Assembly (NCBI RefSeq): GCF_017348835.2
Contig: NZ_CP071375.1
DNA length: 64,000 bases
Reading direction: 5' to 3' (one strand)
From: Escherichia coli
GTDB taxonomy: Bacteria > Pseudomonadota > Gammaproteobacteria > Enterobacterales > Enterobacteriaceae
A model generated the notes under the pieces. That model saw only the letters and a list, made by a program, of their open reading frames with translations, did not search any database and had not been told where the DNA came from. The position numbers were made by a program, and so were the translations under genes. Positions 20,021 through 51,496 of this stretch are shown here, piece by piece; position 1 is the stretch's first letter, and every line of letters begins with the position of its first letter.

Positions 20021-20518
20021 CTACATCTGATATTTTTTATCTCTTAAAGATTCATAAATCCGTTGACAAGTCACTCCTGCGATGTAGCGTTTGTCAGCAA
20101 TTTCAGCATAAAGCTGAGCTTCTGCTGCAATATCTCCGAGCATGTTGGTGAGCATTCCTTCGGCGGCTTTGGTTGTTTTGCCTCTGACGGCAGCGGCAAG
20201 ATTTGCGGTATGCTGCGCTGCGTCAAGGCGTATGGCATATTTTGTTGCTTCGGCACGCAGCTGGTTAACACTATCAGACAGATCAGCAGCCCTGGCAGAA
20301 ATTTCAGCGGCTTTCTGTTGTGCATCTTTAACAGCCTCATCACGGGATATACTTCGCCCCTGTTCAATTATTCGAGCAGCAAATTGGACATTTACCTCTT
20401 GAGATAATTCGGCAGCATCACGCTCCGCCCATTTTTTTTGCCATCCTCTGTCGCTCCAGACATTACCTACGACAAATCCTACCAACACGAGCAAAATCAC
20501 CGTGAATATCTGATTCAC
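20021..20518 (-). CDS. rzpQ: Rz-like spanin (i-spanin)
   Basis: 165 aa with N-terminal TM helix and coiled-coil-like region; Rz1-like ORF embedded in +1 frame. Confidence 0.7.
20071..20325 (-). CDS. rzoQ: Rz1-like outer-membrane lipoprotein (o-spanin), embedded in rzpQ
   Basis: 84 aa from [23 protein letters not shown] with lipobox; proline-rich. Confidence 0.65.
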
Positions 20519-21050
20519 TGTTCTATCCCCCAGCAGGTTAATGCACTCTCCTGGTCACGACGAATAACCTGACCGTAACAATTATTTGAACGAATGCGGC
20601 AATCACGTCCACCGTCCTTTATCCACCAGCGAATCGCCTCGCATGCGCCTTTACGATCACCGGCATTAAGCCGCTTATAAAACGTCGACGGAAAACACTT
20701 ACCAGGGCCAATGTTATATAGGGACAGAATGACGCGATACCGGCTTTCTGTGGCTCGGTCAGTGGAACTTTTATATTGCGCTCCACCCATGCCAGCGCCT
20801 TATCCCGCTCAATGGCGTTAACCTGGGCGCATTTTTCCTTCGACAGTTTCATTCCCGGAATAACAGGTTTACCGTCCACCATCGTTGCTCCCCGACAGAT
20901 GGTCCATATGCCGGAGCCATCGCGGTATGCAGTGGTGTGATTCCCCTCTTTTTCATCCAGAAACTGATCGAGAATGTCGGGGGCAGGAGCACTGGCGGCA
21001 ATCAGTGCCAGAACAGCAGCCGACAGGCTGTATCTGATTTTTACGTTCAT
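20515..21050 (-). pseudogene. rrrQ: Phage lysozyme, split by a frameshift
   Basis: N-terminal 20619-21050 and C-terminal 20515-20790 parts lie in different frames; junction near 20712-20720. Confidence 0.7.
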
Positions 21051-21371
21051 GGATATTTATCAGGATTTATCGGCTTCAAATCCCCGGATATGTTAAATCT
21101 TACCTCACCAGTGATGGGCACTGGCGGGAGGAGGATGTCAATCTGATAAACACAGAGGTGACTATGGATTACACAAATCTACCAAAACAAACTTTTGCTG
21201 ATTTAATCGCACTCAGGCAAGCAGTCGTAGCTCTAATCAACTTGTTGCCGGAGAAGGAAAAGGAATTAGTTAAAGCGCTTCTTAACAGAACTGCCGCCGA
21301 TTTTTCATCATATCCACTGACAGATGACCTTGCGGACCTTCCTGAATTAATTGCAGCGTCCGCCATTAAGC

Positions 21372-21923
21372 TTACTGAAGAGATTTACCCTCCTCAAAAA
21401 TCTTCACAAAATTCCTGCGAGTAACTTCAATGCAATAATCGTAAAACGCCGCAAACTGCTCATCGCGGCGTTTTTTTTCATCTTCAGAAGGAATCAGCAC
21501 CGACAATTTTTTATTCAGATCAGCGACGCTGCCCTCCAGTTTTTCAATGGGCGATTCAATATCATCTTTTTCTGACCGCAATGCCGTCGGTGGCGTCTTC
21601 AGAGAACCAGTAATTCTTCCCGGTAGCTTTCCTTTGTAGGTTATCCACACATTCTGCGCCTCTAAAATTATGGGGCGCTTTTCCGGCGACTGCTCATCCC
21701 CTTCACATAACCCGGCAGCAACATCCAGGAAGACCTGTCTGATGCTCATTCTGGCTGCTGCCTCATAAAACTCCAGCGCGGCACCTTCAACACGGTCCAG
21801 CGAGATGTCCAGGTCAAAAATTTCACCGTCAAAGCGTTCTTTGTCCTGTAATGCTAAAGTTACCGTAACTTTATTCTCAAAATTGCGGATCCCTTTCACA
21901 ATCAGTTCATAGTTTTGAGTCAT
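21372..21923 (-). CDS. Prophage protein between holin and lysozyme (YdfR position; possibly DUF1327-like)
   Basis: 183 aa ORF; family assignment from memory only. Confidence 0.45.
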   Translation of the reverse strand: MTQNYELIVKGIRNFENKVTVTLALQDKERFDGEIFDLDISLDRVEGAALEFYEAAARMSIRQVFLDVAAGLCEGDEQSPEKRPIILEAQNVWITYKGKLPGRITGSLKTPPTALRSEKDDIESPIEKLEGSVADLNKKLSVLIPSEDEKKRRDEQFAAFYDYCIEVTRRNFVKIFEEGKSLQ

Positions 21924-21927
21924 TGAA

Positions 21928-49109: not shown

Positions 49110-49243
49110 CGCATACTCCCTATATTTTCGCGCTCCGAAATAATCTGTAGGCTATGGTGAAGCACTTCAATACGTGTCGTCAAATTTTTACTTAGGCATG
49201 TGATTAACAGCACATTTTTCGGGCTTTTTCGCTGAAATTTCCC

Positions 49244-50137
49244 TCACCTGAGAGCATTCAGCAGATGAATACGAAAGTTACGCGCAGCTGGACTTTGTTC
49301 ATGATGTTTCGGCCAGACCAACCACATTTCAGAAACCGCATCCTCTTCAGCAATCGGCACCCAGCGCATTTCGTTGAGCTGAACACGTTTAAATGACGCA
49401 GGCAAAATTGAAACACCCAGACCGGCGGAAACCAGACCGATGATGGTCATTGCCTCGCCCACCTCCTGAGTGATGACGGGCGTCAAATGGTAACGTCGCA
49501 TCAGCCCGAGAATATCGTCATACAGCCCTGTCCCGACGTGCGGATCAAAAAAGACAAAGGGTTCTTTCGCCAGTTCAGCCAGCGTTACATTCGGGTTATT
49601 TGCCAGGGGATGATCGTGCGGGATCATCGCCATAAGCGGTTCATGGACGATGACTGCGTGTTCAAGCGTCTCCGGTAACGCTGTGTTACGCAGCAATCCC
49701 ATATCCAGCGTTCCTTCAATGAGCGGAACGATTTGCTCGCGAGTGTTCATTTCGCGGGTTTGTAAATGGACATCAGGATAATCACGGCGAAACAGCGATA
49801 ACGTATCGGACACCGCCCGAATAAAAGGAGCCGACGAAGTAAAACCAATGCGCAACTCCCCCGCTTCACCCTGATGCAGTCTTTCAGCGCGAGCGGCAGC
49901 GTCATCCACCATAGACAGGATTTGCCGACTATCTGCAAGAAACTGTTTTCCTGCTGCCGTCAGCAATACACTGCGATTGGTTCGTGCCAGCAGTCGGGCA
50001 CCAATTTGTTGCTCCAGCGCCTGAATCTGCTGACTTAGCGGCGGTTGCGAAATATTCAGGCGGGCAGCGGCGCGCCCGAAATGCAGCTCTTCCGCAACAG
50101 CAACAAAGTAACGCAGATGACGAAGTTCAATATTCAT
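49244..50137 (-). CDS. ynfL: LysR-family transcriptional regulator
   Basis: 297 aa; N-terminal LysR HTH. Confidence 0.8.
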   Translation of the reverse strand: MNIELRHLRYFVAVAEELHFGRAAARLNISQPPLSQQIQALEQQIGARLLARTNRSVLLTAAGKQFLADSRQILSMVDDAAARAERLHQGEAGELRIGFTSSAPFIRAVSDTLSLFRRDYPDVHLQTREMNTREQIVPLIEGTLDMGLLRNTALPETLEHAVIVHEPLMAMIPHDHPLANNPNVTLAELAKEPFVFFDPHVGTGLYDDILGLMRRYHLTPVITQEVGEAMTIIGLVSAGLGVSILPASFKRVQLNEMRWVPIAEEDAVSEMWLVWPKHHEQSPAARNFRIHLLNALR

Positions 50138-50243
50138 ATTTAAAACATCTTATTTGAGATTATTAATATATTAGACAGAACAATTCGATTTTCCTAACCT
50201 ATGTATAAGCCTGATCCACAGGCATATTTAGCAAGGATTTCAA

Positions 50244-51496
50244 GTGAGCCGTACTACAACTGTTGATGGCGCTCCGGCAAGCGACACTGACAAGCAAAGC
50301 ATTTCTCAGCCAAATCAATTTATTAAACGCGGTACGCCGCAATTTATGCGCGTTACCCTGGCGCTGTTCTCTGCCGGACTGGCAACATTTGCACTTCTCT
50401 ATTGTGTACAGCCTATCCTTCCGGTGCTTTCGCAGGAGTTTGGCTTAACGCCCGCGAACAGTAGTATTTCACTGTCCATTTCCACGGCGATGTTGGCTAT
50501 TGGTTTGCTGTTTACTGGCCCCCTATCCGATGCCATTGGTCGCAAACCAGTGATGGTCACGGCGCTACTGTTGGCCTCCATTTGTACGTTACTTTCGACA
50601 ATGATGACCAGCTGGCACGGCATTTTGATTATGCGCGCCTTGATTGGGCTTTCGTTAAGTGGCGTGGCAGCTGTTGGCATGACTTATCTTAGCGAGGAAA
50701 TCCACCCCAGTTTCGTGGCCTTTTCGATGGGGTTGTATATCAGCGGCAACTCAATTGGCGGCATGAGCGGACGCTTAATTAGCGGTGTCTTCACGGACTT
50801 TTTCAACTGGCGAATTGCTCTGGCGGCAATCGGTTGTTTCGCGCTGGCCTCGGCGTTGATGTTCTGGAAAATCCTCCCGGAATCACGCCATTTTCGCCCG
50901 ACTTCGCTGCGCCCTAAGACGTTATTTATCAACTTTCGTCTGCACTGGCGTGACCGGGGATTACCGTTATTGTTCGCAGAAGGCTTTTTGCTGATGGGGT
51001 CGTTCGTCACGCTGTTTAATTACATCGGCTATCGGTTGATGCTCTCCCCCTGGCATGTCAGTCAGGCCGTGGTTGGCTTATTATCGCTGGCTTATTTGAC
51101 CGGTACATGGAGCTCACCCAAAGCCGGAACCATGACCACCCGCTATGGGCGTGGTCCAGTGATGTTGTTTTCGACGGGGTTATGCTGTTTGGTTTACTGA
51201 TGACCTTATTCAGCTCGCTGTGGCTGATCTTTGCCGGAATGTTACTCTTCTCAGCAGGATTCTTCGCAGCCCACTCAGTTGCCAGCAGCTGGATCGGCCC
51301 CCGCGCAAAACGCGCTAAAGGCCAGGCCTCCTCGCTGTATCTGTTCAGTTACTATCTGGGGTCGAGTATTGCCGGGACGCTGGGTGGTGTTTTCTGGCAT
51401 AACTATGGCTGGAACGGCGTCGGCGCATTTATTGCTCTGATGCTGGTCATTGCTCTGCTGGTCGGGACGCGTTTGCATCGTCGTCTGCACGCCTGA
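50244..51496 (+). pseudogene. ynfM: MFS transporter YnfM split by a frameshift near 51176-51179
   Basis: ORFs 50244-51200 and 51107-51496 are contiguous parts of one MFS protein in different frames; junction at a G4 run. Confidence 0.7.

Follow-up and report, generated by a model that had tools for sequence, protein, structure and literature searches.

The window, which is the whole stretch of 64,000 nucleotides of Escherichia coli contig NZ_CP071375.1 analysed here, contains five genes interrupted by frameshifts, and the question is whether these are homopolymer-type assembly errors or signs of a genome in reductive decay as in Shigella, the two readings offered by the first-pass annotation. 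Each of the five positions that it had claimed was confirmed by aligning the window with K-12 MG1655 and further E. coli. The comparison with orthologues in closed genomes, which it had proposed as a check, was run as well, and a discrete lesion is seen at every site. Its count of “at least five” is exceeded, for the PGAP annotation of strain PE164 gives at least nine frameshifted CDS within the window. The five frameshifts are very probably genuine, vertically inherited loss-of-function mutations of three different ages. They are independent events, very unequal in age, and the scale of decay is modest, the ordinary gene loss within a recently expanded pathogenic clone. The frameshifted status of the five genes was already known from the RefSeq annotation of two sibling genomes, PE164 and F2_81, in both of which PGAP marks the same five. 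The features under discussion are:

20515..21050, minus strand: rrrQ pseudogene, the lysozyme of a Qin-like prophage, with a 2-bp TA slippage insertion (from alignment and PGAP)
23412..23614, plus strand: cspF pseudogene, with one T lost between 23488 and 23489 and a 258-bp deletion at 23613/23614
24513..25823, minus strand: IS1203/IS629-type element of the IS3 family, with overlapping orfA/orfB and an ALIL match, not a lesion
26644..27985, minus strand: relic of an ISEsa1 (IS1202-like, ISNCY) transposase, with one extra base in the C6 run at 27624-27629
28620..31615, strand unassigned: decayed prophage genes absent from the first-pass annotation, placed by transferring the PGAP annotation of PE164 by alignment
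41102..43524, plus strand: ynfF pseudogene, AA to A at 41707 (from alignment and repair)
50244..51496, plus strand: ynfM pseudogene, G5 to G4 at 51176-51179, with a stop at 51198-51200

The genome of the window, PE164 and F2_81/F2_18C belong to one pig-associated clone of atypical EPEC (aEPEC), ST302 and O108:H9. Over tens of kb the window differs from PE164 and F2_81 by 0-2 SNPs and by no indel. The three are set apart by an IS1203-mediated inversion, a deletion and insertions, and the structure of the window is neither that of PE164 nor that of F2_81; these rearrangements show that they are separate genomes. For example, the IS1203-like element at 24513..25823 took the place of about 3.1 kb of prophage (ydfU..ydfV), while the element is inverted at this site in PE164 and the ancestral prophage segment is present in F2_81.

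Three of the lesions belong to this clone. In rrrQ, the alignment shows TATA extended to TATATA, that is (TA)2 to (TA)3, at 20715-20720, and PGAP labels the gene “frameshifted” in PE164 and F2_81. The exact 61-mer across the insertion occurs in 2 of the 604 complete genomes having this allele family, and the truncated 143-aa product is found on 10-18 contigs, every one of which matches the window at 99.9% identity or more. Without the extra TA the gene encodes a lysozyme of 177 aa, which an exact look-up found on more than 1000 contigs. In ynfF, the loss of one A at 41707 creates an in-frame TGA at 41708-41710 after 202 of 807 codons (counted from the K-12/PGAP start at 41102), and the single-base repair returns the full length of 807 aa. 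The 605-aa downstream product is found on 26 contigs in 38 blocks of public assemblies; the loci sampled with it are at most one SNP from the window and their carriers at least 99.9% identical to it. The N-terminal fragment (203 and 202 aa) had no exact match in the look-up of public assemblies, and gene callers place the start elsewhere, giving a product of 193 aa. In ynfM, the change from G5 to G4 leaves a product of 318 aa instead of 417 aa, and the protein after single-base repair is identical to that of K-12 over 417 aa. Public data from NCBI, ENA and Logan contain the 318-aa product on 34 contigs (44 blocks), and the same change is also present on at least five other ynfM haplotypes, in runs such as SRR23491007, SRR13570486, DRR472193, ERR13369731, ERR10749407, SRR13642974 and SRR31284048, where some cases may be sequencing errors. 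The exact 59-mers across the two indels match only PE164 and F2_81, among 5292 complete genomes for ynfF and 5126 for ynfM, and both counts are lower bounds, as a nearby SNP hides the same indel in the way that ynfM showed. YnfF and RrrQ, once repaired, each have exact matches among public genomes. Thus the first-pass claim that an indel of 1-2 bp restores a full protein holds for ynfF, ynfM and rrrQ.

It fails for cspF. The 3' end of this gene is missing through the 258-bp deletion at 23613/23614, besides the lost T, so the indel alone cannot restore the gene, and the annotation in E24377A, PE164 and F2_81 reads “frameshifted; missing C-terminus”. The exact 59-mer at the lost T is found in 208 of 215 matching complete genomes, including E24377A. 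In all the E. coli examined, the ISEsa1-like transposase survives only as a relic. Here the extra base splits it into an HTH ORF of 123 aa and an ORF of 310 aa. The C6 run is G6 on the coding strand of the transposase, and the in-frame allele is G4TT, with which the transposase of ATCC 8739 reads through as ...WMIEEGLWRERRRK... The exact 60-mer of the broken allele is shared by 49 of 768 complete genomes, and the 123-aa product lies on more than 1000 contigs. Further decay was found at 28620..31615, namely a hypothetical gene (frameshift and stop), a DUF7167 gene (stop), a SAM methyltransferase gene (frameshift and stop), a DUF977 fragment and an exonuclease fragment. These lesions recur in PCP06021 and ATCC 8739 and are therefore old. 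In the window rrrQ, cspF, the IS relic and their neighbours lie in a Qin-like prophage, at the ydfJ-rspB site that the cryptic prophage Qin (Kim) occupies in K-12. Like Qin, with its pseudogenes ydfE, insD7 and intQ, this prophage contains many broken genes, but the individual lesions of Qin are not those of the window. For instance, rrrQ is intact in the Qin of K-12, while in PCP06021 it is broken by another mutation.

The distribution of the alleles suggests the order of events. The cspF and transposase lesions are old and are carried along with the cryptic Qin-like prophage in many unrelated E. coli, while the TA insertion in rrrQ, the 1-bp deletion in ynfF and the G5 to G4 change in ynfM probably arose in the ancestor of the ST302 O108:H9 clone. 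The lesions track the phylogeny: carriers of the ynfF and rrrQ alleles match the window at 99.9% identity or better, while the sister genomes, 99.92-99.93% identical over 22.4 kb, have an intact ynfF, five Gs in ynfM and no other indel. Along these 22.4 kb, the short branch that defines the clade against these sisters has acquired 2 indels beside 6-8 SNPs, close to what is expected of unselected mutation, so the cluster is not statistically remarkable. A mutator (mismatch-repair-deficient) background was considered and rejected, as private transitions and transversions stand at 62:31, compared with 103:50 on the K-12 branch and 59:34 on that of strain 100181. The lineage-private synonymous and nonsynonymous changes (73:16) are likewise in line with these two branches. 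Judged from the sequence context, replication slippage may have acted at the G run in ynfM and the transposase and at the TA repeat in rrrQ, and simple 1-bp deletions in ynfF and cspF. The first-pass annotation had placed several sites at short runs or repeats; this is right for ynfM, the transposase and rrrQ, but the ynfF site is a run of 2 bases and the cspF site is in no run at all. The five are similar to the ordinary small-indel pseudogenes flagged by PGAP and ascribed to slipped-strand mispairing, in that indels of 1-2 bp truncate conserved ORFs and three lie in short runs or repeats; they differ in no essential respect, although the ynfF and cspF lesions are outside repeats. Functionally, the prophage lysozyme and CspF would be inactive, YnfF would be reduced to about 200 of 807 residues with its paralogue YnfE intact in the window, and the MFS transporter YnfM would be shortened to 318 of 417. 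Loss of activity, and polarity on ynfGH-dmsD, would be expected. The lesions may persist because the genes are dispensable in the niche, or because selection has yet to purge young clonal branches.

There is practically no chance that the frameshifts are programmed recoding or phase variation, bypassed by the ribosome or switched at repeats: the IS1203-like element in the range does use programmed -1 frameshifting and short G runs are present at the ynfM and transposase sites, but each of the five genes has intact homologues that consist of a single ORF, ynfF meets TGA immediately, the tracts are only 4-6 bases or (TA)3, and one tract length was seen in all sampled clone members carrying a truncated product, a look-up by truncated products that would miss revertants inside the clone. 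No slippery motif or structure was found at the five sites, and the Rfam scan detects ALIL in the IS1203-like element only (RF01497, 25372-25488, 120 bits). The sixth frameshift in the range, between the overlapping frames of orfA and orfB in this element, is programmed and functional, and PGAP labels it “programmed frameshift” in the sibling genomes. The -1 frameshifting of the IS3 family (IS1203/IS629) thus fits the element at 24513-25823 and none of the five sites, and an intact ISEsa1-type transposase is a single ORF.

Assembly error is excluded. On this reading the indels would be long-read consensus artefacts and the genes intact in the cell, and two of the five sites are indeed G/C runs, but its probability is minimal because genomes that were sequenced and assembled independently share these alleles. 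They are present in PE164 from China and in F2_81/F2_18C from Australia, which come from different laboratories with Illumina reads in both: PE164 was assembled by Unicycler with Illumina NovaSeq reads (PMC12233904), and F2_18C (CP043542) by Unicycler with Illumina HiSeq and PacBio reads (PMC6985150). They recur in dozens of public draft and read-derived assemblies (at least 3 NCBI drafts and many from Logan/ENA). At ynfF and ynfM the same sequence context is intact in about 5,100-5,300 further complete genomes, and the remaining complete genomes of the rrrQ allele family likewise lack the rrrQ lesion. The cspF allele is found in E24377A, which is among the earliest complete E. coli genome records, and the ynfF and cspF sites lie outside homopolymers. 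Besides, none of the 31 runs of at least 6 bases in the 22.5-kb backbone has changed in length compared with K-12 and strain 100181, and the only two backbone indels are at a 2-base run and a 5-base run. Since the lesions are biological, the pseudogene status of the five genes should stand in annotation pipelines and should not be “corrected” away. The TA insertion in rrrQ and the deletions of A in ynfF and of G in ynfM can serve as markers for the pig-associated O108:H9/ST302 aEPEC clone.

Reductive evolution of the Shigella kind, with large-scale decay, massive IS expansion and wide pseudogenisation after a niche shift, is improbable, although part of the likeness is real. The lesions are heritable and IS1203 has expanded: the IS1203-like element occupies 32 chromosomal places in PE164 and 26 in F2_81, where the median is 4. 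The three sibling genomes are distinguished by deletion, inversion and disruption of genes (ynfC, ynfE) through IS elements, and the expanded IS1203 causes the deletions, inversions and insertions around these genes. The young branch has 2 frameshifts beside 3 nonsynonymous and 2 synonymous SNPs. PE164 contains further backbone pseudogenes, a stop in bcsG and frameshifts in fimA and gadA; the broken bcsG and fimA alleles are also present in other assemblies, where an exact look-up of the GadA fragment of PE164 found no match. As in Shigella and EIEC, IS-mediated disruption and rearrangement go together with point mutations that have turned metabolic, fimbrial and biofilm genes (ynfF, ynfM, fimA, bcsG) into pseudogenes.

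The comparison made by the first-pass annotation is nevertheless too strong. Shigella carries hundreds of IS copies and has far heavier gene loss. The clone has neither hundreds of IS copies nor a reduced genome: its main IS is at 26-32 places, 52 intact IS elements in total were counted in F2_18C (PMC6985150), and the genomes measure 5.03-5.07 Mb. About 5 of 168 backbone CDS (some 3%), gadA among the five, are broken by point mutation in a small sample, which comprised the window and three 50-kb samples of PE164, one 50-kb sample having none. Mobile DNA, here the cryptic Qin-like prophage or the IS relic, is decaying in all E. coli and accounts for three of the five lesions, and two of the three, the cspF and transposase alleles common to 208 and 49 unrelated complete genomes, are older than the clone. 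A local cluster of frameshifts may therefore mix very old prophage relics with recent clone-specific lesions, and by itself it is weak evidence for genome-wide reductive evolution.

Among the alternatives to ordinary gene loss, a selected (pathoadaptive) loss survives best, though we regard it as unlikely. On this view the niche would favour strains in which ynfM and the selenate/tellurate reductase operon ynf are inactivated. Four separate lesions in the ynf operon were found within a clone complex less than 0.1% divergent: the deletion of A in ynfF in the clade of the window; a nonsense mutation at codon 45 of ynfE in most sister genomes, in which ynfF is intact; a ynfE insertion, present both in the F2_81 sublineage and in several drafts breaking at 40011; and, in F2_81, ynfC::IS1203. 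The G5 to G4 change in ynfM, in turn, is found on at least six different haplotypes. On the other side, the events are few, the paralogues ynfE and ynfF are long, so that they offer large targets, and are perhaps redundant, and with hundreds of thousands of isolates sequenced, the loss of a base from a G5 run is bound to turn up repeatedly by chance. Relaxed constraint on ynfF after its inactivation was considered and rejected: the four private amino-acid changes of YnfF occur as well in the intact allele, carried by 36 contigs of sister genomes, so they are older than the frameshift.

The ynf operon may be undergoing repeated, independent dismantling in the ST302 complex, and the G5 run of ynfM may be a site of recurrent inactivation in E. 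coli at large. Together these would reflect selection for the loss, or full release from selection against it, in the pig-gut aEPEC niche, a reading that we offer tentatively and consider doubtful. As a minor point, the repeated lesions in ynfE, ynfF and ynfC hint, from their sequences, at a niche-specific loss of one anaerobic respiratory option.

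All five frameshifts proposed in the first-pass annotation were found in the window, and each lies where it had been placed:

20715-20720: rrrQ, TATATA in place of TATA
between 23488 and 23489: cspF, a T missing
27624-27629: ISEsa1/IS1202-like transposase, C6
41707: ynfF, an AA pair minus one A, leading to TGA at 41708-41710
51176-51179: ynfM, G4 in place of G5

When repaired in silico by one base, YnfF returned to 807 aa and YnfM to 417 aa (identical to K-12), and RrrQ returned to 177 aa once TA was removed. cspF has also lost its last 3' codons to a 258-bp deletion at 23613/23614, and the read-through allele of the transposase reads G4TT on the coding strand. 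More broken prophage genes lie within the same range, at 28.6-31.6 kb.

To decide between sequencing error and mutation, we compared the window with other genomes, and two complete RefSeq genomes agreed with it at almost every position. PE164 (NZ_CP114128.1; pig, Nanjing) has 2 SNPs outside the IS copy and no true indels over about 38.7 kb, and F2_81 (NZ_CP043542.1; pig, Australia) has 0-1 SNPs across 25823-54337. In both, PGAP flags rrrQ, cspF, the transposase, ynfF and ynfM as frameshifted. Since both differ in structure from the window, these are three separate genomes of one clone. CP043542 is strain F2_18C, an atypical EPEC of ST302, O108:H9 and phylogroup E, assembled with Unicycler from Illumina HiSeq and PacBio RSII reads (PMC6985150); PE164, an O108:H9 aEPEC/ExPEC, is a Unicycler assembly of Illumina NovaSeq reads (PMC12233904). 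Among public assemblies, the exact truncated product YnfM-N was found on 34 contigs (44 blocks), the exact 605-aa C-terminal product of YnfF on 26 contigs (38 blocks) and the exact RrrQ-N product on 10-18 contigs, and every sampled carrier of the ynfF and rrrQ alleles aligns to the window gap-free at 99.9% identity or more. Systematic platform error is excluded: about 5,100-5,300 other complete genomes carry this local context unbroken, and none of the 31 backbone homopolymer runs of at least 6 bases changed length against K-12 or strain 100181. The suggestion of homopolymer-type assembly error is thus refuted by the same alleles in PE164, F2_81 and many public assemblies, and real mutation is borne out by these independently assembled genomes.

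The cspF and transposase lesions are older than the clone. Of 215 matching complete genomes, 208 have exactly this cspF allele, among them E24377A (where the gene is annotated as frameshifted and 3'-truncated), LF82 and ATCC 25922; the transposase G6 allele occurs in 49 of 768 complete genomes, and in-frame copies are likewise annotated as incomplete relics. The exact rrrQ, ynfF and ynfM alleles are found, among complete genomes, in PE164 and F2_81 only. Repaired YnfF, with four amino-acid changes specific to the clone complex, is intact on 36 contigs. The sister genomes on those contigs align to window 31102-53523 at 99.92-99.93% identity with 12-15 SNPs; both ynfF and ynfM are unbroken in them, and exactly two indels separate them from the window, one at the A of ynfF and one at the G of ynfM, so both frameshifts are recent. 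With branches polarised by K-12 and strain 100181, the window clade carries 6 SNPs (1 intergenic, 2 synonymous, 3 nonsynonymous) and these 2 frameshifts on the same branch, roughly what mutation without selection would be expected to leave on a clonal branch of such youth. Among deeper lineage-private changes, 73 are synonymous and 16 nonsynonymous. No mutator signal appeared in the lineage-private transition to transversion ratio (2.0, as in other lineages).

IS1203 activity is the sole difference among the window, PE164 and F2_81 in the region 24513-27106, where the window carries one copy:

24513-25823: IS1203-type IS3 element with a functional programmed frameshift (ALIL pseudoknot, 120 bits)

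In PE164 (locus L005) an IS1203-like copy is inverted relative to the window and 1.28 kb (window 25824-27106), holding flxA/ydfW and a portion of the ISEsa1 relic, is deleted. F2_81 (locus L006) retains the ancestral 3.1-kb segment ydfU-rem-hokD-relBE-ydfV, in place of which the window has the IS, and carries extra insertions in ynfC and ynfE. At L006 13297-24153, between window-equivalents 40011 and 40025, an insert roughly 8.4 kb long splits its ynfE, with two IS1203-like copies bounding it or inside it and several hypothetical genes; a number of drafts also break here, at 40011.

In most sister genomes (L038, L041, L042 and 18 look-alikes), codon 45 of ynfE (window-equivalent 38747) carries a C-to-T nonsense mutation, with ynfF and ynfM intact and 99.92% identity to the window; the window clade is the reverse, with ynfF broken and ynfE intact. 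In the F2_81 sublineage and the several drafts breaking at 40011, ynfE is disrupted besides ynfF, and F2_81 also has ynfC::IS1203. One of the paralogous catalytic subunits YnfE and YnfF is lost in almost every member of the complex, and as the ynfF, ynfE and ynfC lesions are separate, the operon has been hit at least four times in a complex less than 0.1% divergent. The G5-to-G4 change in ynfM, with an identical 318-aa product, is found on at least five other haplotypes (L012-L018) in public read-derived assemblies; these are 9-28 substitutions from the window allele, and one equals K-12 except for the deletion. This spread points to recurrent slippage at a putative hot spot, or possibly to errors in those runs. 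Selection may be involved in the ynf and ynfM losses.

Shigella-like reductive decay, the other reading first proposed, fits the clone only weakly. It was right in kind, as the lesions are genuine, and overstated in degree. The main IS, IS1203-like, occupies 32 places in the chromosome of PE164 and 26 in that of F2_81 versus a median of 4; for F2_18C, 52 intact IS elements were counted, of which 23 are IS1203, and ynfC is listed as disrupted (PMC6985150). The chromosomes measure 5.03-5.07 Mb. Backbone pseudogenes were sampled in the window and three random 50-kb slices of PE164, two of which hold the following lesions and the third none:

NZ_CP114128.1 204755-206434: bcsG, internal stop, truncated product on 13 public contigs
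NZ_CP114128.1 237050-238449: gadA, frameshift, truncated fragment without a match outside PE164 in public contigs
NZ_CP114128.1 4324842-4325380: fimA, frameshift, truncated product on 75 public contigs

Recurrence of the truncated products shows the bcsG and fimA lesions to be real. With gadA included, about 5 point-mutation pseudogenes were counted in about 168 backbone CDS. In this small sample decay is modest, as is usual for a pathogenic clone after recent expansion, and does not amount to genome reduction. Of the five frameshifts, three lie in cryptic prophage or IS relic, sequences whose decay is to be expected in any E. coli, and the five-frameshift feature is ordinary, already annotated as such in the sibling RefSeq genomes.

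The window is E. coli chromosome: it starts at ydeE, crosses a Qin-like cryptic prophage, and continues over rspAB, ynfA-M, asr and mdtIJ to tqsA; its backbone 32095-54593 aligns to K-12 MG1655 at 98.9% identity with two indels only. At 54593/54594, tqsA is split by a phage-satellite-like element. The elements and neighbouring features are:

about 12.3-33.3 kb: Qin-like cryptic prophage
19399-19815: cspA-type thermoregulator 5'UTR, upstream of cspI
22882-23274: cspA-type thermoregulator 5'UTR, upstream of cspB
28059-28230, minus strand: sok antitoxin RNA (Rfam, 99.8 bits), adjoining the ISEsa1 relic
54457-54600: tqsA 5' fragment
54594-64000, extending past the window end: satellite-like element (about 11.5 kb in PE164, L010 343-11826)
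55857-56398: its small terminase, frameshifted in PE164 per PGAP
57031-57430: its head-decoration gene, frameshifted in PE164 per PGAP
57442-58497: its major capsid protein
60448-61854: its RepA-type helicase

The satellite-like element also codes for SSB, a PerC-like regulator and an Icd-like protein, its tyrosine integrase lies immediately beyond the window edge, and we presume it to resemble capsid-encoding PICI-type satellites. With its sok match beside the ISEsa1 relic, the remnant prophage is implied to hold a hok/sok-type locus. Compared with K-12, a 1.5-kb insertion after ydeE (window 1300-2846) carries ftrA and a rhodanese-like gene; among 5,416 complete E. coli genomes, about 380 share it at a coverage of at least 80%.
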